A stretch of DNA of 64,000 nt from Acidobacteriota bacterium (lineage in GTDB: Bacteria > Acidobacteriota > Thermoanaerobaculia > Multivoradales > Multivoraceae): assembly GCA_028875725.1 (NCBI GenBank), contig JAPPCR010000006.1:563786-627785 (forward strand). The letters are read 5' to 3'. This document shows positions 5,877 to 49,983 of this stretch, piece by piece. The notes under the pieces were generated by a model that saw nothing but the letters and a program-made list of their open reading frames with translations, was not told the origin of the DNA and searched no databases. Made by a program: the position numbers and the translations under genes. How positions within the stretch are numbered: position 1 is the first letter of the stretch; each line of letters begins with the position of its first letter.

Positions 5877-7477
5877 GGTCGGCCCGGTCTGGGGTTGACA
5901 ACCCCGCGGGCCGACACCAGCGTCCTGTCCGTGAGCGGATCGTAGACGGCCGCGACGTATCGGTACTCGCGCTTTCGCAGGCGGAGGTCCGTCTCATACA
6001 CAAAGGTCTCGCCCGGCGCCGGCGCCTCGGACCTGACCACAGGGACCTTCTGAACCAGCTTCCTGGAATGGATGTCCCATTTATCCACCGCCGAGATCCG
6101 GAACTCGAACTCGTTCATCCACTTCCCATCCATGGGCAGCAGGGTCAGCTCATCGAGCGGGACGACTACTTCCACCGGGACGGAGACCCTGAGGAATCCG
6201 GCCTTTCGGGGCGTCCCCAGGCGCACCGCCAGGGGGTCGGCGCCGGGAGCGTTGCCGAAGAGCATCGACGCCTCGAGGCGCATGTCGATCTCTGTGCTCT
6301 TCGACATGTCCAGGTAGTGCTCGCGGGACCGCACGCGGAGTTTCCTTTGTCCGACCAGCCGCACCCTGATGTCGTGCAGCTCGTCGTCCCGGCTCTGCGG
6401 AGCGTCGAAGCCGAGCCAGTAGTACGAGCGTGTGTCCGCCACGGTCTCGCTGAGCGCCTTGCTGCGGAAGGCGTTGAGCATTGGCCGCCCTCCCGTTTCG
6501 TCGGCGAGGAAGCGAAGAACGTCGTGTTGCCGCTCCTCGTACGAGCCGATCATGAGCGCCTGCATCGACGGCCATGGCGGCGGGTACATTGTGCTGCCGC
6601 GCGTGTCGCCCCCTGAGTAGGCGTAGTAACCGCCCGGGGGAATCGGTGGGAGTCGCCCGTAGGAACGTTGCCTGTACTGCAGACCCGCAACGTCGACGGG
6701 GTAGAGGCTGTAGCCGACCCGGTTGGCGGCATGGACCAGCGGGCTGTACAGGCTGTCGATGTTCGGTCTGGCGAGTCCCGAACCCAGGACATCCCAAACC
6801 GCGCTCGGGGCGCTCCAGCTATCCGCCAGCAGGAGCATCACCTTGCGGCCCGGTCCACGGGTGACGCTTCGTATGGTTGCCGTGGCCGCCATGACGGCGC
6901 GCCTGGTGGCTTCGGCGCTCTGGCGGCCGAACGTCGGCCGCATCTGCGCTTCCAGGAGCGCGGTGCGGAGCTGGTAGTGGGAGTTCGTCCAGTCCGTCAG
7001 CCGGGAGACGCCCGTTCCGTCGAACGCGACGATCGCCGCGCGGTCCGCCGGGTTCAGCAGGCGGAGATCCTGGTCCAGGCGGCTCAGCACCCGGTTGCGG
7101 CGTCCGCGGATGGCCGACAGGTCGTCCACGAAGATCAGGTAGTTCGTACCGACCGGCGCGTTGTGCGCCAGAGACGGTACGTCCGCGACGCCGTCGCCGC
7201 CGGCGGTCCTCGCGTAACCCTCGTCGACCTCGGTGAAGTACGCGATGCGCACCGGCTGGCGGTCCACGAGGAGCTCAAAGTCGTCTGGCTCGAGTCCGCG
7301 AATCCGGTTCCCCTTCCTGTCCGTGACAACGACCTCGACGTTGACGACGCGAACGTCGACCGAGTCGGAGAACAGATCCGGCAGCGACGATTCCTGGGCA
7401 GTTGCGGGGAGCGCGGCCAGGACCAGTGCGGTCGTGAAAGCCGTGCCGAATCTGAATGGGGACAATGGCCTGATCAT
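5873..7477 (-). CDS. secreted VWFA-related Acidobacterial-domain protein, paralog 2 (start set at internal Met MIRPLS, 4 bp overlap with upstream gene)
   Basis: Same N- and C-terminal conserved blocks as paralog 1. The six-frame ORF extends to 7714, but the signal peptide begins at MIRPLSPFRFGTAFTTALVLAALPATAQ. Contains a Pro/Tyr/Gly-rich insert. Confidence 0.65.
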   Translation of the reverse strand: MIRPLSPFRFGTAFTTALVLAALPATAQESSLPDLFSDSVDVRVVNVEVVVTDRKGNRIRGLEPDDFELLVDRQPVRIAYFTEVDEGYARTAGGDGVADVPSLAHNAPVGTNYLIFVDDLSAIRGRRNRVLSRLDQDLRLLNPADRAAIVAFDGTGVSRLTDWTNSHYQLRTALLEAQMRPTFGRQSAEATRRAVMAATATIRSVTRGPGRKVMLLLADSWSAPSAVWDVLGSGLARPNIDSLYSPLVHAANRVGYSLYPVDVAGLQYRQRSYGRLPPIPPGGYYAYSGGDTRGSTMYPPPWPSMQALMIGSYEERQHDVLRFLADETGGRPMLNAFRSKALSETVADTRSYYWLGFDAPQSRDDELHDIRVRLVGQRKLRVRSREHYLDMSKSTEIDMRLEASMLFGNAPGADPLAVRLGTPRKAGFLRVSVPVEVVVPLDELTLLPMDGKWMNEFEFRISAVDKWDIHSRKLVQKVPVVRSEAPAPGETFVYETDLRLRKREYRYVAAVYDPLTDRTLVSARGVVNPRPGRP

Positions 7478-15763: not shown

Positions 15764-15908
15764 GTCAATTCACTAGTCCCCACGACGACCGGTCGTACGC
15801 AGTGCGGTCGCCGCTTCGCGGCGCGATTTCCCGGCGGCCTCCGGCCGCAGCGGGTCGGAAGACCCGCGCACGCAGAGCACCGCTTCCGGCTCTCGGCGAC
15901 GTCCAGCT

Positions 15909-16080
15909 GGCTCGGGGACGGGTGTGGAGGGTCCCAGCGGGCTAGAGCCAAGCGACTGCCCGAGACCTTGCATGAACCACGGACAAGCCGGAGCGCAGGC
16001 GACCGAAGCGAACGCCCAACCTCACATCCACCAAGCGGGCGTGAGCGTCCGCTGGGACCCTCCACACCCGTCCACGAGCC
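15909..16080. repeat. intergenic long-stem hairpin element, copy 1 (about 30 bp stem, about 110 nt interior)
   Basis: The arm ggctcggggacgggtgtggagggtcccagcgg (15909-15940) pairs with ccgctgggaccctccacacccgtccacgagcc (16049-16080); one mismatch over about 32 bp. The interior shares a conserved core with copy 2 at about 47.98 kb. Confidence 0.7.
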
Positions 16081-16098
16081 AGCGGGTGCCCGCCACCG

Positions 16099-18090
16099 TC
16101 AGTGGTAGTAGGCCATGCAGCCGGGTTCGACCTTGCGGGGCAGGCCGGGCGGATACTCGTTGGTCCAGAACTCCTTGATGGCTTGGCAGTTGATGAGAGT
16201 GGAGACGCCGTCGTTGGCGGCCATCTCGTAGCTGCGGGGCAGCGCTTCGCGGAGCTGTTCGGGGGAGGTGACGTACTCGCCGCGAGCGCCGAGGCCTTCG
16301 GCGATCTTGTCGTAGCGCAGGTTCTCCTGGAAGAGGTACATGTGCATCGACCGCGTGGCGCGGCGAGCCGATCCGTAGACGCCCCAGGCGTTGTTGTTGT
16401 AGACGATCATGACCGCCGGGATCCGGTACTTCGCCAGGGTCTCGAACTCCATGCCGGAGTAGGCGATGCCGCCGTCGCCGGTGATCCCGAACACGGGCGC
16501 CCCGCGGTACGGCTCCTGGGGACCGACGCCGTTCATCACCGCGGCGCCGGCGCCGACCGTGTAGCCGACGTCGGGTCCGATCGCGCCGTACTGGTAGGCG
16601 CCGTTCAGGATCTGGCCCGGCCGGTGGGCGCGCAGCCAGCGCCGGGTGTAGCGGGCGATGCCGTAGCCGCCCGAGACCACCGTCGTCTGTTCCTTCGGCA
16701 GGTCGCCGGAGTACAGGAAGTTCGAGAGTTCCTGCGCGATGACGGCCGGGTGAATCGTGTCGGTGGCCGCGCTGTGCTTCAGCCCGAGCTCGTACCACTC
16801 CGCGTTCTGCTTTTCGAACGCGTCGCGGGCGGTGGCGAGCTCGTCGCGCCAGGCCGGACGCGACGCCGCCGGCAGTGCCTCTGCGAGAGCCTCCAGGCCG
16901 CCACGGGCGCTGGCAACGAGTCCCAGATCGACCGGCAGGTTGCGGCCGATGTCCGCCGCGTCGGGGTCGATCCGGATCACCTTGGCGTCCGGGTCGAAGG
17001 CGACTTCACCGACGCCGGGCATCGAGTACTGACCGACGAAGATGACGAGGTCGGCCGAGAGCAGGGCATCCGGTCCGGTGCTCACCGACAGCGGATGGCT
17101 GTCCGGGAAGTGGCCGCGCATCGGCCCGGATTCGACGACTGCGATGTCCGCCCGCTCCGCCACCGTGCGCAGGACATCCCAGGCCCGGTCGTAGAACACG
17201 CCGGTCGAGGCGACGATGATCGGCCGCTCGGCCTTCCCGATCATCTCGACGACCTTCCCGGTGTCCGCCCTGGACGGGTGGGGCAGGGCCTCGGTGCGGT
17301 AGGCGTTCTTGTCGTGGTAGTAGAGCAGGTCGTCCGGCGACTCGAACTGGGCCCGCGCGACCTCACCGGTGAAGTCGAGGTGGACCGGCCGCGGCACGCC
17401 GGTGCGCAGGTGCCGGAAGGCGTAGGCGGCGTACTCGTAGACCCGGTTCGGGGTGATCAGCCGCTTGCCGTACTTTTTCAACCCCACGGTGGTCGGTTGC
17501 TGGTAGCCGCGCTGGATGCCGCGTTCCGTGTCGTCACCGCCGACCGTCATGTTGCTCGCCAGCACGAGCAGCGGCGTGCGTGCGGCGTTCGCGGCGCCGA
17601 TGTTCATGATCATGTTCGTGAACCCCGGGCCCTCGGTGCCCGAGCAGGCGGCGGCCTCGCCGGTGACCCGGATGAAGCCGTCGGCGGCGGCGCACATGCT
17701 GCCCTCGGTGCGGCCGCCGTAGGTGGGGATGCCCTCGGCGGCGATCGCGTTGATCACCTGGTAGTTGCCCGGCGCGCAGAAGAGCGCCTTGAGGCCCTCG
17801 TTGGCGCAGGCGCGGGCGAACACCTGGGCGCCGTTCATCGGGAACTCGGCCGGGTCGGGGGCCTCGTTTCTGGTGCGGGGAATCTCCTCCGGAACGCTGA
17901 TTGGCCGATCCTCGCGGTCGGCGGCGGCAGCCCGGGCCTGCTGTGCGAACAGGGCGGCGGCGCCGACGCCGGCAGCGCTCGTGGCGACGAAGCTGCGGCG
18001 GGAGACGCCGGAATCTGCCTTGGCGGCGGCAGGGTCTGCGGCGTCTTGCGCCGGAGAGAGCGTACGGGGCGGGCGTTGCGGTTCGTTCAT
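16099..18090 (-). CDS. Tat-exported thiamine-pyrophosphate-dependent enzyme (ALS/POX/BFD superfamily)
   Basis: 663 aa. Twin-arginine signal SRRSFVATSAAGVGAAALFAQQARA. TPP-enzyme N-terminal, middle and C-terminal domains (GDGG..N TPP-binding region GITGDGGIAYSGMEFETL...NN). 4 bp overlap with the downstream cytochrome c gene. Confidence 0.65.
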   Translation of the reverse strand: MNEPQRPPRTLSPAQDAADPAAAKADSGVSRRSFVATSAAGVGAAALFAQQARAAAADREDRPISVPEEIPRTRNEAPDPAEFPMNGAQVFARACANEGLKALFCAPGNYQVINAIAAEGIPTYGGRTEGSMCAAADGFIRVTGEAAACSGTEGPGFTNMIMNIGAANAARTPLLVLASNMTVGGDDTERGIQRGYQQPTTVGLKKYGKRLITPNRVYEYAAYAFRHLRTGVPRPVHLDFTGEVARAQFESPDDLLYYHDKNAYRTEALPHPSRADTGKVVEMIGKAERPIIVASTGVFYDRAWDVLRTVAERADIAVVESGPMRGHFPDSHPLSVSTGPDALLSADLVIFVGQYSMPGVGEVAFDPDAKVIRIDPDAADIGRNLPVDLGLVASARGGLEALAEALPAASRPAWRDELATARDAFEKQNAEWYELGLKHSAATDTIHPAVIAQELSNFLYSGDLPKEQTTVVSGGYGIARYTRRWLRAHRPGQILNGAYQYGAIGPDVGYTVGAGAAVMNGVGPQEPYRGAPVFGITGDGGIAYSGMEFETLAKYRIPAVMIVYNNNAWGVYGSARRATRSMHMYLFQENLRYDKIAEGLGARGEYVTSPEQLREALPRSYEMAANDGVSTLINCQAIKEFWTNEYPPGLPRKVEPGCMAYYH

Positions 18091-18536
18091 GGTGGATTCT
18101 CCGGTTCAGCCGCCGCGCGGTACTCCTCGGGGCCGAGGCTGCGCAGGTAGTGGACGAGTTCCCAGATCTCCGTGTCGTCGAGTTCGGCCTCGAAGGGCGG
18201 CATGTCGAGGCCGGCGCCGAACTTCGTGGAGCGGAAGAGATCGCCGTCCGTGGTCCCGAACCGCCAGCGTTCGGGGTCGGTGAGGTCGGTGGCCTCGAAG
18301 TCGATGTTCTCGAGCGCGCGGCCGTCGAAGCCGTGGCAGATCTGGCAGTGGCGCAGGTAGTGGGTGCGACCTCTCTTCTCGGCGGCCTCGGTGTACGGCG
18401 TCGGGTTGACGGCCGGTACCGCCGGATCGTCCGCCGCGCCGGCGCCCTGGGACGCCTCGGACTGGCCGGCCGCGGCCGCGGCCAGGCCGAGCGACAGGAA
18501 CGTCGCCAGGCGGAGCGCTCTTGTGGCAACTGTCAT
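18087..18536 (-). CDS. mono-heme c-type cytochrome (periplasmic)
   Basis: Start reassigned to the internal ATG at 18536 (MTVATRALRLATFLSLGLAAAAAGQ signal peptide); the upstream 370 codons of the six-frame ORF are Arg/Pro-rich non-coding-like. Single CQICH heme-binding motif. Confidence 0.6.
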   Translation of the reverse strand: MTVATRALRLATFLSLGLAAAAAGQSEASQGAGAADDPAVPAVNPTPYTEAAEKRGRTHYLRHCQICHGFDGRALENIDFEATDLTDPERWRFGTTDGDLFRSTKFGAGLDMPPFEAELDDTEIWELVHYLRSLGPEEYRAAAEPENPP

Positions 18537-18685
18537 CGGGATGGCCCGGGCAGTGTACCCGTGCCGCATGCCGGCGGGAACCCGTGTGGCGCGATCCCGC
18601 GCCACACGCGTCACAGTCCGTGCGCCCGTCATCGGGCGCACGGATGACACGCCGGCGTACCCAGTTTCCGGCGTGCCGGCTTCGG

Positions 18686-21055
18686 CTATTGCGCGGGAGC
18701 GGGAAGCAATTCGATTCTGGCTTCCGCCGCCTCGAGGATGGCGGGGCGGGTGTAGAGCAGGGGAAACGCCTGGTCGTTGGCCCAGGGCTGGAACAGGTCC
18801 CGGTAGTGCGGGCTCCTGGGGTCCCCGGACTGGCCTGGATTGTTCATCACCACCGAGGCGTCCCAGTTGCCGACGTCGATGACCATGCGGAAGGAGGCGC
18901 CGGAGCGCTGGTTGAAGCCGTCGCCGTAGCTGGTGTTGCCGACCGTGTCGCCGGAGCCGCCGCGCTCGGCGGGGCCGACGTCGGCGAGCCGGCGGATGTC
19001 GTCCGGAAGGTGCGCCGACAGTGGATGCCGCAGTTCGATCTGGTGCAGGTCGCCCCAGCGCCAGGCGACGGGGTCGGGGCCCAGGCGCTCGCTGACGTCG
19101 ACGTACGCGGCCCGCAGGCTGTCGAGGAGCGCTTCGTCGCGCGCCCGCCGCGGCCGGTCGCCGAGCCTCGGATCCATCTCTTCGAGCATCCGGAGCAGGT
19201 GCTCGTCCTGGACCGGGAGCGGGTCCTCGCCCGCCCCGAGGGCCGCCGCCATCCGCCGGCCGACCTCGGCTTCGAGGTGCCGTCGCCACCAGACTTCGAA
19301 GAGGGCGGCCGCGGCGCTGTCCGCGGCGAGCTCCGCGTTCCAGCCGCCCAGGAGCTCGAGCGCCGGCCCGGCCTCCGGTGTCGGACTCGCTCGTCCCAGC
19401 AGCGCGTGAAGACGGCGCGCGGGTATCGAGACGTAGTCGGTCTGGAGCCGGACGGCGCCCTCGACCGTCATTGCGTCCTCGGCGTCCAGCACTTCGCCGA
19501 TCCGCTGCCGCCGGTACGGCCCGGCCCACTCCCAGCCCAGCGGCACGTCGTAGCCGGCGGGCAGGTTCATCTCGTTGGCGGTCGCCACCCAGCCGCGCTC
19601 CGGATTGAACTCGACCGGCAGTTCGTCCATGTCCCGGTAACCGCTCCACTCGTAGCGGCCGTCGCCCGGCACCGGCAGCAGACCGTCCCAGTTCGGCCGG
19701 ACCGGCGCCAGGCCGCCCGGTTTCCAGCCGATGTTGCCGCTCGTGTCGGCGTAGACCTGGTTCTCGGACGGCGTTCCCCAGCGGTTCATCGCCGCCAGGA
19801 ACTGATCCCAGTTGCGCGCCCGGATGTACTCGATCGACCCGAGGTAGGGCGCCATGCCGGGCTCCAGCCAGGCCGCGCGCAGACCGATCGCCAGGTCGCG
19901 GTCGGGGTCCCGGTAGAGCACGGGGCCATGGTGGGTGAAGCGAAGGTCCACGGTGCGGGCGTCTTCGCCGCGAACCGGAATCGTCTCCTCGATCGTCTCC
20001 ATCGGCAGCCAGTTGCCCCGGTGCTCGTAGAAGTCTGGTTCGCCGGGTTTCGTCCGGTAAATGTAGAGGTCTTCCTGGTCGATGCTGAAAATTGTCAGCC
20101 CGAAGGCGATCGTGCCGTTGTGTCCGATCGAAATGCCGGGCAGCGCGGGCTCGCCGGCACCGATCAGGTCGAGGTCCGGTGAACTGAGGTGGACGATGTA
20201 GCGGAGCGAGGGCACGGCCTGTGTGCGGTGCGGGTCGTTGGCGAGCAGTGGCCGGCCTGTGGCGGTACGTCGCGGCGAGATCGCCCAGTTGTTGCTGCCC
20301 TGGGATGCCGGGCCGACCTCGTCCTGAAAGCCTGGTTCGAGGTCACCGAAGCGAACGCCGCGGGTGCCCAGCCGGTACAGGTCGAGTGCCTTGGGGGCCG
20401 CCCGGAAGGCGTCGAGATCGAGGCCTGCGGGTACGGCGAGCCGATGGTCTGGCTGGTACCGGTCACGGAGGGCCAGCGCCGCGGCTCCGTGCTCCGCCAG
20501 AAACCTCGCGCGGGAGAACTCGCTGGCGGCGTTTCGCAGCAGGCCATGGCTGCGGATCCGCGTCACCGCCTCAGGGGTCCAGTGCGACGGCTCGTAGCCC
20601 AGCGCCTCGAACTCCGGCGGCAGCAGCTCGCGACGCTCCAGCACCAGGTCGACGTAGGCGTTGACGCCTCGCGTCCAGGCGCTGACGATGCGCTTCGTGT
20701 CCGAGGCGTAGGCGAGCCACTCGGCGTGCATGTCGCCGCGGTAGAGCAGCAGCCGGGCGGCCCGGTCCTGCTCGACGAAGTGGGGCCCGAAGACCTCGGA
20801 GAGCGTCCCCTCGCCGCGCCGGCGCCAGAGGTCGATCTGCCACAGCCGGTCGCGGGCCGCGTTCCAGCCCTGGGCGAAGAACAGGTCGTCCTGGCCGCCG
20901 GCGAAGACGTGGGCGACGCCCCAGCGGTCGACCAGGATCTCGACCGACGCGTCGAGCCCCGGGACCTCGAAGCGGGTTGTCTCGATCTCCTGGGCAACCG
21001 TCGTCGAGGCGAGGAACAGGGCGAGCGCGGGGGCCGTCTGGCGGAGCTTGCGCAT
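18686..21055 (-). CDS. penicillin acylase family (Ntn-hydrolase S45) protein, possible N-acyl-homoserine-lactone acylase
   Basis: Signal peptide. Conserved N-terminus (WGVAHVFAGGQDDLFFAQGWNAARDRLWQIDLWRR). Beta-subunit N-terminal nucleophile motif SNNWAISPRRTATGRPLLANDPH. Confidence 0.7.
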   Translation of the reverse strand: MRKLRQTAPALALFLASTTVAQEIETTRFEVPGLDASVEILVDRWGVAHVFAGGQDDLFFAQGWNAARDRLWQIDLWRRRGEGTLSEVFGPHFVEQDRAARLLLYRGDMHAEWLAYASDTKRIVSAWTRGVNAYVDLVLERRELLPPEFEALGYEPSHWTPEAVTRIRSHGLLRNAASEFSRARFLAEHGAAALALRDRYQPDHRLAVPAGLDLDAFRAAPKALDLYRLGTRGVRFGDLEPGFQDEVGPASQGSNNWAISPRRTATGRPLLANDPHRTQAVPSLRYIVHLSSPDLDLIGAGEPALPGISIGHNGTIAFGLTIFSIDQEDLYIYRTKPGEPDFYEHRGNWLPMETIEETIPVRGEDARTVDLRFTHHGPVLYRDPDRDLAIGLRAAWLEPGMAPYLGSIEYIRARNWDQFLAAMNRWGTPSENQVYADTSGNIGWKPGGLAPVRPNWDGLLPVPGDGRYEWSGYRDMDELPVEFNPERGWVATANEMNLPAGYDVPLGWEWAGPYRRQRIGEVLDAEDAMTVEGAVRLQTDYVSIPARRLHALLGRASPTPEAGPALELLGGWNAELAADSAAAALFEVWWRRHLEAEVGRRMAAALGAGEDPLPVQDEHLLRMLEEMDPRLGDRPRRARDEALLDSLRAAYVDVSERLGPDPVAWRWGDLHQIELRHPLSAHLPDDIRRLADVGPAERGGSGDTVGNTSYGDGFNQRSGASFRMVIDVGNWDASVVMNNPGQSGDPRSPHYRDLFQPWANDQAFPLLYTRPAILEAAEARIELLPAPAQ

Positions 21056-47861: not shown

Positions 47862-47969
47862 GGAGCGAGGCTTCGCCTCGCCGTTTCTCCCGGCCGGCGA
47901 GGACGCCGGCGCACCCAGTGTGAACCGGCGTCGAGTAGCGGCGGCCACGTTCACGGCAGGGCGTCGAGC

Positions 47970-48140
47970 CTGCGGCGGTCCGGGGGGAAGGGTGCCAGCG
48001 GGCTGGAGGCAAGCGACGCCCGACGCCCGCACGCTTACCTCCGACCTGACGGAGCGCAGCCGACCGAAGCGAGCGCTCACCTCCCATCCACCAAGAAAGC
48101 GTGAGCGTCCGCTGGCACCCTTCCCCCCGGACCGCCGCAG
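47970..48140. repeat. intergenic long-stem hairpin element, copy 2
   Basis: Arm ctgcggcggtccggggggaagggtgccagcgg (47970-48001) pairs perfectly with ccgctggcacccttccccccggaccgccgcag (48109-48140). The interior core gcgcagccgaccgaagcgagcgc..catccaccaag..gcgtgagcgtccgctgg is about 80% identical to copy 1. Confidence 0.7.
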
Positions 48141-48158
48141 GCGGCATGCACCACCGCG

Positions 48159-49298
48159 CTATGCGGTTCCGGGAGCGGTCCCGAACTCGGCGCGGATCGC
48201 GGCGCCGTGCTCGTCGAGTTCGGGAACCGGCGGCAGGCGTTTTCCCGGTTCGTTGGGGGCGGTAGCGGGTGCGACCATGTCGATCTCGGTACCGTCGGGG
48301 AGAGGCTGTCTGGCCCGGCGGAGTTGTGGATGCCGTGACAGGGCGGCGACGTCGTTCAGGAAGCCGTAGGCGATACGCGCCTGGTTCAGGGCGGTCTGGA
48401 TCGAGGCCCGGTCGTGTCGCAGGAAGACCGCGCCGATCACGGCTTCGACCTTGTCGCGGGCATTGGCGCGGTCCACGTTCCGCGGGTAGGCGTCGGCCAG
48501 TTCCGGCTGGTCGAGAACCTCGTTGCACAGCCGCACGAACTCGCGGTCGTTCTGGACACCGATCAGGACGGAGTCGCCGTCCCCGAGCCGGAACAGTCCG
48601 TAGGGCACGATCGTCGGATGGCCGAGCCCGACGCGCGGCCAGTCGAGCCCCTGCTGCTCGAAGCTCAGCAGGGGCACGGCCATCCAGTCCGCCATCGTGT
48701 GGAAGAGGGTGGCCTCGACGTTGCGGCCGGCGCCCGTGCTCTCGCGCTCGATCAGGGCTTCGAGGATGGCGGAGTAGGCGTAGATGCCGGTTGCGAAGTC
48801 GCAGATCGACACGCCGACCCGGCCGGGCTCTGCCGGCGAACCGGTGATCGATGCGACGCCGCTCTCGGCCTGGACCAGGAGGTCGTAGGCGCGCATCGAC
48901 CGGTACGGACCCTCCTCGCCGTACCCCGAGATGTCGCAGGTGATCAGCCGCGGGTGACGCTTGCCGAGGTCCTTCGACCCGAAGCCCGCGCGCGCGGCGG
49001 CGCCCGGAGCGAGGTTCTGGATGAACACATCCGCGCGCTCGACCATCCGTTCGAGCAGGGTCCGGTCCCGCGCGTCCTTGATGTCGAGAACGATGGACTC
49101 CTTGCCGCGGTTCAGCCAGGCGAAGTAGGCCGAGACGCCGCCGCTGCCGTCGTAGCCGCGGGCAAAGTCGCCGCCTTCGCGCTCGATCTTGATCACCCGG
49201 GCCCCGGCGTCGGCGAGCCGGCAGGTAGCCAGCGGCGCCGCAACCGCTTGCTCGATGGCCACCACGAGGACGCCGTCGAGAGGCCGGCGCGGGGTCAT
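48159..49298 (-). CDS. CoA-transferase family III (CaiB/BaiF)
   Basis: LDGVLVVAIEQAVAAPLATCRLADAGARVIKIER. Start at the internal Met (MTPRRPLDG). Confidence 0.65.
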   Translation of the reverse strand: MTPRRPLDGVLVVAIEQAVAAPLATCRLADAGARVIKIEREGGDFARGYDGSGGVSAYFAWLNRGKESIVLDIKDARDRTLLERMVERADVFIQNLAPGAAARAGFGSKDLGKRHPRLITCDISGYGEEGPYRSMRAYDLLVQAESGVASITGSPAEPGRVGVSICDFATGIYAYSAILEALIERESTGAGRNVEATLFHTMADWMAVPLLSFEQQGLDWPRVGLGHPTIVPYGLFRLGDGDSVLIGVQNDREFVRLCNEVLDQPELADAYPRNVDRANARDKVEAVIGAVFLRHDRASIQTALNQARIAYGFLNDVAALSRHPQLRRARQPLPDGTEIDMVAPATAPNEPGKRLPPVPELDEHGAAIRAEFGTAPGTA

Positions 49299-49302
49299 CG
49301 AG

Positions 49303-49983
49303 TCAACGCCAGGCGAAGACCGGCTGCTCGTAGTGGGCCACGCGGACATCGTTGCCGCGAAGCACGACCTCGAGCATCTGGTAGACGATCGCCGCCGTCG
49401 GCGAATGGACGAGGCCGCCGCGGATCGGCATGGAGAGCACGGGGTTCTCGCTCTCCGGTATCTCGCGAAGCACGGGCACGTCCGGGCGGTCCAGGTCGAT
49501 CAGCGGAATGCGGTAGGCCCTGTAGACCTCGGCCGGATTCGGCTCCAGCTTGCGGTAGCCGTCGCACCAGAAGACGACCGGCGTGATGACGAAGCCGGAG
49601 CGCGTGCCGAAGTCGTCGAGTCGCCCGAGGACGGCGGACGAGTCGAGGTCGAGGCCCACCTCTTCGTGGAGCTCGCGGAGCGCCGCCTGCTCGGGTGTCT
49701 CCGCCTCGTCGATCCGGCCGCCCGGGAGAGCCCACTGGCCGCGGTGGCGGCGCAGCCGGAGCGACCGCCGCGTGAGCAGGAAGCAGCCGCGGCCGCCCTT
49801 GTCGGGTAGCAGCGTCACGGCGACCGCGGCGTGCGCGTTCGCCGGCGTCGCGCCGGTGTGGCCGGAAGCCTCCGCTGCCCGCGCCGCGGCGGCTTCCGGG
49901 TCGAGCGCGCGCTGCTCGAAGCGTCCCAGGTTCCGCTCGGCGTGCGCGAGAAGTTCCGTGCCGTGCCGTGCCGGAAAGCTCAT
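49303..49983 (-). CDS. NUDIX hydrolase, CoA pyrophosphatase-like
   Basis: LLTRRSLRLRRHRGQWALPGGRIDEAETPEQAALRELHEEVGL, the NUDIX box with CoA-pyrophosphatase-type upstream motif. 4 bp overlap with the LLM gene. Confidence 0.6.
   Translation of the reverse strand: MSFPARHGTELLAHAERNLGRFEQRALDPEAAAARAAEASGHTGATPANAHAAVAVTLLPDKGGRGCFLLTRRSLRLRRHRGQWALPGGRIDEAETPEQAALRELHEEVGLDLDSSAVLGRLDDFGTRSGFVITPVVFWCDGYRKLEPNPAEVYRAYRIPLIDLDRPDVPVLREIPESENPVLSMPIRGGLVHSPTAAIVYQMLEVVLRGNDVRVAHYEQPVFAWR

Follow-up and report, generated by a model that had tools for sequence, protein, structure and literature searches.

A dispersed family of structured palindromic repeats behind gene ends in Thermoanaerobaculia (Acidobacteriota)

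Introduction

Two intergenic loci in a 64,000-nucleotide stretch of Acidobacteriota DNA (the window) fold into long hairpins that have similar interiors and different stems. An earlier note, made from the letters of the window, read them as a structured RNA or a DNA cruciform and took the compensatory changes in the stems as an argument against a mobile repeat. The question raised by the locus is what such an element is, what keeps its hairpin intact, and whether a structured element and a mobile one have to be different things. Work on interspersed palindromic repeats has been confined almost entirely to Proteobacteria and a few further groups. The Acidobacteriota that host the element are uncultured, and many of them are represented by MAGs with names that point to sponge or coral hosts.

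Results

Two window hairpins belong to a large repeat family

We folded 181-nt segments on both strands and compared them with 200 shuffles. Hairpins are present at both proposed loci, 15909–16080 and 47970–48140, with free energies of –112 to –138 kcal/mol. On either strand the z-scores range from –7.8 to –10.1, and none of the 200 shuffles is equally stable. The paired ends lie at 15906 and 16083 in copy 1, which has one internal mismatch, and at 47968 and 48142 in copy 2, the stem of which is perfect. The terminal stems had been put at about 30 bp; they measure 35–36 bp, or about 45 bp with the helix base that is recognized at the family level, and the family alignment also widens both elements to the limits given in Table 1. 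The conserved blocks of the earlier note occur exactly twice in the window, compared to 0.00–0.01 occurrences expected. The interiors are indeed shared, at an identity of 73% (79/108 in the family alignment) and not the 80% first estimated, and the stem arms are 63–66% identical. Nine aligned stem pairs are changed on both sides and are Watson-Crick in each copy, in agreement with the original observation that the stems differ and yet stay self-complementary.

To place the two copies, one genome per species was scanned for exact matches to the conserved 22-mer GGAGCGCAGNCGACCGAAGCGA. The scan gave at least 120 matches in 26 assemblies, all of them from Acidobacteriota; among the matches listed, the assemblies are labeled Thermoanaerobaculia, "Candidatus Multivorans", Holophagales and Vicinamibacteraceae, and single complete chromosomes carry at least 8–10 element loci each. 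An nhmmer profile built from 101 copies finds 147 element copies across 1.26 Mb of sampled loci and only copies 1 and 2 in the 64-kb window, so the possibility that just two copies exist, which the earlier note had raised against itself, does not hold. The sampled 8-kb loci mostly contain one copy, and the two in the window are 32 kb apart. One locus (L078, VXSP01000044.1) is 99.2–99.6% identical to the element flanks of the window.

The Rfam 15 covariance models give 0 matches to the window at gathering score and only noise at E-values up to 10 (sR53, 17.7 bits; mir-1788, 13.9 bits). Phage, plasmid and viral-contig collections contain no sequence similar to the element, and a search of the literature on repeats in Thermoanaerobaculia and "Ca. 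Multivorans" and on Acidobacteriota MITE/REP sequences found nothing relevant. It is secure that both hairpins are members of a large, undescribed family of non-coding interspersed repeats of about 200 nt in Thermoanaerobaculia (Acidobacteriota).

At locus L034 (JAJEBV010000042.1) the palindrome, flanks included, reaches a perfect 60 bp precisely where the contig stops. The hairpin has probably caused a fold-back artefact in the assembly here, and L034 was excluded from the family alignment. A practical consequence is that element copies break assemblies, as at L034, and that RNA-motif screens can mistake them for riboregulators.

Architecture of the element

The element unit spans about 200–205 nt, and its conservation edges are sharp at both ends across copies. 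Because its orientation is locked to the upstream gene (see below), the sense strand of both window copies is the minus strand of the window. On this strand the element starts with a 5' tail, (G)GCGUCGGU-GGCA, followed by the helix P1 of about 45 bp, which consists of a conserved base, a middle of 13–18 bp that is different at each locus, and a conserved top (GGAGGGUCCCAGCGG / CCGCUGGGACCCUCC). The base contains the pairs C23–G229, C24–G228 and G26–C226 (alignment columns) and, at columns 25/227, a C·U mismatch that is found in 92 of 101 copies. P1 encloses the hairpin P2 (GCUC-RCSCY / RGSGY-UCGC with a G-rich loop), the junction UUCGGUC and, in most subfamilies, the long-range helix P3 (GNCUGCG / CGCUUGN'C) around a variable segment of 39 nt. 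The 3' tail has the consensus GGCUGGAGGGCGUCGG. In a diverged subfamily (Table 1) the most conserved block is changed to GCTCGCTCCGCTCCGCTCGCTCCGG and its partner to GTCGCTCGCTCCGAG; P3 is lost, and P1, P2 and the tails are retained.

CGTCGG (CGUCGG in RNA) occurs at four fixed columns (11, 142, 160 and 234), in one orientation only and never as its complement. These co-oriented motifs and the invariant C·U mismatch suggest recognition by a protein. We also considered UUCG as a tetraloop that would mark the RNA strand and rejected it, as the consensus fold places UUCG in the junction and the block was preset by the search pattern.

Table 1 Coordinates of the two window copies, their upstream genes and the subfamily that has lost P3
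Feature	Locus	Coordinates	Strand	Description or basis
Copy 1, whole element	window	15891..16099	-	5' tail, P1, P2, P3, 3' tail; nhmmer match 16090-15888, alignment-column map, family boundaries
Copy 1, P1 5' arm	window	16049..16086	-	conserved base CCCG, locus-specific middle, conserved top GGAGGGTCCCAGCGG
Copy 1, P1 3' arm	window	15903..15940	-	CCGCTGGGACCCTCC ... CCAGCTGG
Copy 1, P2 hairpin	window	16008..16046	-	GCUC-ACGCC / GGCGU-UCGC, G-rich loop
Copy 1, P3	window	15947..16000	-	GCCUGCG 15994-16000 paired with CGCUUGGC 15947-15954
Copy 1, variable segment enclosed by P3	window	15955-15993	-	
Gene upstream of copy 1, co-oriented	window	16099..18090	-	TPP-dependent enzyme, 663 aa
Copy 2, whole element	window	47953..48159	-	nhmmer match 48154-47960, alignment-column map
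Copy 2, P1 5' arm	window	48109..48145	-	
Copy 2, P1 3' arm	window	47965..48001	-	
Copy 2, P2 hairpin	window	48069..48106	-	
Copy 2, P3 and enclosed variable segment	window	48008..48061	-	48055-48061 paired with 48008-48015
Gene upstream of copy 2, co-oriented	window	48159..49349	-	CoA-transferase family III, 396 aa
Diverged subfamily without P3	L023	3643-3845		
Diverged subfamily without P3	L065	2132-2335		
Diverged subfamily without P3	L103	4822-5024		
Diverged subfamily without P3	L121 and L122	~6233-6441		

Covariation in the stem and the interior

RNAalifold on the 101 copies predicts 37 base pairs, 28 of which show compensatory change. Standard pairs are formed in 95.2% of the cells, compared to 80.4% with shuffled partners and 46–50% when the partners are slid by 1–3 columns. 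Cells changed on both sides number 532 (148 shuffled, 47–94 slid), the covariation score is 0.413 (0.143 shuffled, 0.053–0.111 slid), and none of 500 shuffles matches the observed covariation value. Covariation is also found inside otherwise invariant blocks, where columns 125 and 176, 50 nt apart, are occupied by GC in 64 copies, CG in 23 and AU in 8. Orthologues follow the same pattern: between copy 1 and L113, a T>G change in one arm is matched by A>C in the other, and copy 2 differs from L001 by a compensatory 1-nt indel in both arms. Within clusters of copies that are at least 85% identical, 29 pairs are swapped between two Watson-Crick states. The proposal that stem pairing is kept by covariation is thereby extended from two copies to the family and to comparisons between orthologues.

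G·U and A·C cells are equally frequent (93 and 92 overall; 36 and 40 in P1 among non-redundant copies), and the antisense alignment folds at least as well as the sense alignment (–64.6 compared to –54.1 kcal/mol). The G·U and A·C counts were tried as a strand test and set aside as symmetric and uninformative. Since the two mismatch types are equally frequent and both strands fold, covariation identifies neither RNA nor DNA, nor the strand. The one feature in favour of a candidate role at the RNA level is the orientation lock to the upstream gene.

The argument that covariation speaks against a mobile repeat is not supported. The family is dispersed and has subfamilies, filled and empty sites, truncations and nested insertions, and in REPINs, which are miniature mobile DNAs, frequent compensatory change between the hairpin arms is on record (PMC3116915).

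Constraint on the stem

Divergence was compared in 79–84 pairs of orthologous copies. Codon position 3 of the upstream gene has a mean divergence of 0.17 (84 pairs; 79 in the second comparison) and the 160-nt 3' flank one of 0.20 (79 pairs), compared to 0.10 for the whole element, 0.11 for the locus-specific mid-stem columns (79 pairs each) and 0.063 for P1 (84 pairs). In the most diverged class of pairs (d3 0.35) the divergence of the element is only 0.13, and L005 and L116 combine a d3 of 0.42 with a P1 divergence of 0.00. The constraint is moderate (about 0.4–0.6 of the neutral proxies), and the least diverged pairs do not show it. Conversion between copies cannot keep a locus-specific stem and arm-to-arm conversion leaves the rate unlowered, so the comparison points to purifying selection acting in place on the locus-specific stems. 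We regard it as secure that the hairpin of the element is maintained by selection.

Position, orientation and transcription signals

Genes were called by a simple third-position G+C method. The adjacent upstream gene is co-oriented with the element in a ratio of 71:15 (86 copies), and the distance from its stop codon to the element is 0–100 nt. On the downstream side, 34 elements face a convergent gene and 19 a tandem one, and divergent arrangements are rare. Other genes in the same 8-kb loci lie on the sense strand of the element in 49.8% of cases, and the loci have a GC skew of 0.014 ± 0.051 along it. What sets the orientation is therefore the gene immediately upstream, rather than the direction of replication or an overall gene-strand bias. 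A fixed link to the stop codon was rejected because the distances range from 0 to 100 nt and the G-rich spacer is variable.

In the window, copy 1 begins directly behind the TGA stop (16099–16101) of the TPP-enzyme gene, at the 3' end of a minus-strand cytochrome c/TPP-enzyme gene pair that is followed by another minus-strand ORF. Copy 2 begins directly behind the TAG stop (48159–48161) of the CoA-transferase gene and lies between the converging ends of this gene and a UbiA-family (ctaB-like) gene. The gene context given earlier was right for copy 2, at the end of the ctaB-like gene, and mistaken for copy 1, which had been placed at an operon start.

Stop codon and element are separated by a G-rich short tandem tract of GGCGNN/GGCGGA type (window 16084–16098 and 48142–48158), and the same tract is seen in the spacers of L002, L020, L057, L070, L109, L114 and L116. 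Its length varies between orthologues in a microsatellite-like manner, for example between the window and L057 or L113.

Neither window copy has a sigma-70-like promoter or a terminator composed of a hairpin and a T-run, and there is no T-run behind P1 on either strand. Intrinsic terminators combine a G+C-rich hairpin with a U-tract directly behind it, and the element lacks the latter. At the locus shared by L085, L012 and L025 a separate hairpin-plus-U-rich terminator is located between the stop codon and the element, and co-transcription with the upstream gene is therefore not assured everywhere.

Mobility and exchange of interiors

BLAST of the element flanks, which are 80–90% identical, identified two orthologous sites in both states. 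The first is filled in L075 and L117 and empty in L014; the second is filled in L023 and L065 and empty in L096 and L044. In the empty state of the second site, which lies within an operon, only 9 nt separate a TGA from the ATG that follows, and in the filled state the element is inserted between them in sense orientation. Both empty sites are without any hairpin, and the GGCGTCGG-like direct repeats found family-wide at both element ends are missing from them. No target-site duplication is seen in these two comparisons, with flanks only 80–90% identical. Metagenomic orthologues of the CoA-transferase locus were considered as a further empty site and rejected because their synteny differs.

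Three copies (L003, L099 and L120) consist of the 5' half only. They were examined as possible IS ends and are truncations instead; the ORF downstream of L120, a candidate for an autonomous parent IS, encodes an ordinary secreted protein. The 1.26 Mb of sampled loci contain no autonomous IS that shares the element termini, and between paired (inverted) copies there is no transposase, only small, ordinary ORFs. From presence, absence and dispersal we conclude that it is secure that the element family is, or was, mobile.

Stems and interiors have different histories. Non-orthologous copies with 0.90–0.97 identical interiors have unrelated mid-stems (identity 0.42–0.60), whereas the stems of orthologous copies with equally similar interiors are 0.94 identical. 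At one orthologous locus the stems diverge by 0–2% and the interiors come from different subfamilies (27% divergence). The covarying pairs of P2 and P3 are found in all four combinations, in 50, 18, 6 and 5 copies. Interiors have therefore been exchanged between loci, by recombination or cassette replacement.

One hairpin has no interior. It has the form GGCACCCGCC-TGCCGCGG-T-CCGCGGCA-GGCTGGAGGTCGTCG, lies on the minus strand of L025 (7350–7379) right behind a TAG stop, and is the sole case in 1.26 Mb, compared to 147 full copies. Either a deletion has left it behind, or it is a hairpin that has stayed unoccupied.

A module of about 75 nt that is present in seven copies (L007, L023, L108, L052, L085, L089 and L038) looked like an optional RNA expansion segment. 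It is instead an independent two-hairpin mini-repeat of about 75–80 nt, nested in the element at one fixed site and in one orientation, and it also occurs on its own in the window (18568–18656), in L038 (twice), in L064 and in L099.

Discussion

A mobile repeat with a probable role at transcript ends

The element family joins the bacterial repeats of REP/REPIN/MITE type as a new relative; it is not a one-off regulatory RNA. REP and BIME sequences are often situated behind gene ends and between convergent genes, and their hairpins are thought to protect mRNA 3' ends. Our best explanation, which from the sequence comparisons we hold to have about an even chance of being right, is that the element is a mobile, REPIN/BIME-like structured repeat residing in 3' UTRs, with a selected hairpin that probably serves as a structure at transcript ends. 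Having no promoter, lying behind a co-oriented gene and being tolerated inside operons, the element would probably be transcribed as the 3' UTR of the upstream gene or as an intercistronic spacer. The folded transcript would then be the object of selection, and the very stable hairpin would most likely define or protect the mRNA 3' end in the manner of REP/BIME sequences. A role as a strong terminator is unlikely because the element is tolerated inside operons. New copies would arise from a putative mobilising activity acting in trans, or from recombination. Points against the 3' UTR reading are the 15 of 86 copies that are antisense to the upstream gene, the separate terminator ahead of the element at the locus of L085, L012 and L025, the moderate strength of the constraint, the absence of P3 in one subfamily, the symmetry of G·U and A·C cells together with an antisense strand that folds at least as well, the lack of a U-tract, and the fact that neither a mobilising enzyme nor a target duplication was found in the sampled loci.

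The main rival, which we consider possible but rather unlikely, is selfish DNA of the REPIN type without a host function. A RAYT-like HUH/Y1 transposase, with a single gene at some other place in the genome, would use the hairpin as its single-stranded DNA substrate; pairing, mismatch and CGTCGG would be determinants of recognition and cleavage, and covariation would reflect selection for mobilisability. Much of the family's behaviour is as expected on this account: it is multicopy and extragenic, it is divided into subfamilies, its sites can be filled or empty, some copies are truncated and one is an interior-less remnant, its strand-symmetric mismatches fit a constraint at the DNA level, and the mini-repeat inserts into it at one site and in one orientation, as in IS200/IS605-like systems. 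Against it, neither the window nor the 1.26 Mb of element-rich loci contains a Y1 motif or a tblastn homologue of E. coli RayT (best E-value 1.7), and the paired copies have no transposase between them. Transposition of single-stranded DNA, as by IS608, is expected to follow the replication fork, whereas the orientation of the element tracks the adjacent gene. The 110-nt structured interior is unlike the short spacer of a REPIN, and constraint on locus-specific stems in place would not be expected from selection at the level of the element. Compensatory hairpin change itself is documented for REPINs (PMC3116915) and agrees with this rival as well. A REPIN-type substrate is in any case compatible with a host function, as a mobile repeat can be retained.

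A stronger version of the transcript-end reading appears doubtful to us. It would make the element a modular plug-in 3' UTR RNA retained by the host, with private, selected stems, a mobile three-way-junction cassette and a dedicated protein that would read the four CGUCGG motifs and the invariant C·U mismatch. If true, it would be a new class of mobile functional RNA that controls mRNA ends in an uncultured symbiont lineage.

We find it distinctly improbable that the differing stems are simply old target DNA. According to this account, a cassette of about 150 nt bounded by GGAGGGTCCCAGCGG and CCGCTGGGACCCTCC homes into the loop of a terminator-like or REP-like hairpin that already exists at the locus, and the stem differences are not covariation within an element. 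The exchange data, in which paralogues share interiors and not mid-stems and one locus carries different interiors on an unchanged stem, would be explained, and the interior-less hairpin of L025, with family outer sequences behind a stop codon, could be an empty shell. However, the helix base (CCCGCC / GGCTGG with the C·U mismatch) and both tails are conserved outside the variable segment in nearly all copies, and the whole 200 nt is therefore homologous. There is one solo shell compared to 147 full copies, the hairpin is missing from both empty sites, and recombination between copies explains the exchange of interiors equally well.

Neutral maintenance of the palindrome, in which one arm serves as the repair template for the other or the template is switched within a quasi-palindrome during replication, without selection on structure, is very unlikely. 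It would account for long, near-perfect stems, for strand-symmetric mismatch types and for compensatory indels between orthologues. Conversion between arms would leave the substitution rate unlowered, yet substitution is slower in the stems than at third codon positions or in the flanks; the short interior helix P2 and the lone pair 125/176, fifty nt apart, covary too; and the C·U mismatch persists uncorrected in the helix. Least credible of all is a stand-alone gene for a small RNA, a riboswitch-like regulator or a self-cleaving ribozyme that would be expressed from signals of its own. The conserved multi-helix fold and the junction sequences common to the copies speak for it. Against it, there is no Rfam match at gathering score (noise up to an E-value of 10) and no promoter-like site was found; genomes carry dozens of copies behind unrelated genes, P3 and the junction block are replaced in one subfamily, and presence/absence polymorphism exists.

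Comparison with known repeats

Correia elements (CREE/NEMIS) of Neisseria and the ERIC/IRU sequences of enterobacteria are palindromic intergenic repeats of 100–150 nt, and like the element they have no known cognate transposase. They are co-transcribed with their neighbours, form long RNA hairpins and affect the processing and stability of mRNA. In Correia elements the terminal inverted repeats are conserved in sequence and the target duplication is TA, whereas in the element the mid-stem is locus-specific and no duplication is visible; host phylum and sequence are also unrelated.

Classical MITEs, derived from DDE-type IS elements, share with the element that they are small, non-coding, dispersed, bounded by inverted repeats and polymorphic for presence and absence. 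In contrast, the sampled loci gave no parent IS with the same ends for the element, and the two comparisons of filled and empty sites gave no target duplication of fixed length; its 45-bp inverted repeat is copy-specific yet complementary, and its copies are constrained in place.

Integron attC sites come immediately after the stop codon of the ORF before them and always point the same way. They are recognized as folded hairpins, and for this recognition sequence counts for less than structure and unpaired bases. The element resembles them in its position right behind a stop codon and in its fixed orientation. However, attC sites belong to cassette arrays next to an integrase, whereas the element copies are single, are scattered behind housekeeping genes and form no cassette-attC arrays with an integrase; moreover, the conserved part of the element is the interior and not outer core sites.

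The closest likeness is to the REPINs and REP-BIMEs of Pseudomonas and Enterobacteria with their RAYT transposases: these are also extragenic, multicopy and non-coding, with a long hairpin and compensatory changes (PMC3116915). REPINs, however, are 70–110 nt long and consist of two inverted REP units, which are imperfect palindromes with a conserved 5' tetranucleotide, and a short spacer; the RAYT gene (Y1/HUH, IS200-like) of the same genome typically has such repeats on its flanks. As the element is about 200 nt long, has a structured and modular 110-nt interior (P2, P3 and the variable segment) and contains no GTAG-type REP core, it is not a REPIN by structural definition. It is also asymmetric and orientation-locked to the upstream gene, and the sampled DNA contains no RAYT. 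The element is thus a more complex, asymmetric and orientation-locked palindromic repeat, of a kind that was not described before in Acidobacteriota.

Its combination of features is unusual: covariation is very strong, the lock to the upstream gene does not depend on replication, the locus-specific stems are constrained, and interiors are exchanged like cassettes. If the role at mRNA 3' ends is true, the domestication of hairpin repeats could be studied here in about a hundred natural replicates that are independent of each other. Should a mobilising enzyme be found, it would extend the REPIN concept to a new phylum and to a more complex substrate.

Neighbouring features in the window

The minus-strand ORF of 520 aa at 18087–19649 is mostly non-gene, as its third-position G+C collapses above about 18540. 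The actual gene at this position encodes a small CxxCH cytochrome c, runs from about 18537 to 18087 and overlaps the start of the TPP-enzyme gene by 4 nt. Just upstream of it, the stand-alone mini-repeat of the window contains the perfect hairpins GTGGCGCG-N-CGCGCCAC and TCCGTGCGCCCG-TCAT-CGGGCGCACGGA and is flanked by GCCGGCG direct repeats. The UbiA/ctaB-like gene has a terminator-like hairpin of its own at 47863–47892 (GCGAGGC-TTCG-CCTCGC, then CGTTTCTC), separate from copy 2; in the orthologous locus L001 about 75 nt that include this hairpin are missing. A third small repeat, the hairpin GCGGGTCGGAAGACCCGC, is located at 15850–15867 between copy 1 and the next gene, and it recurs exactly 12 times in 10 of the other loci, in several cases close to a copy of the main element.
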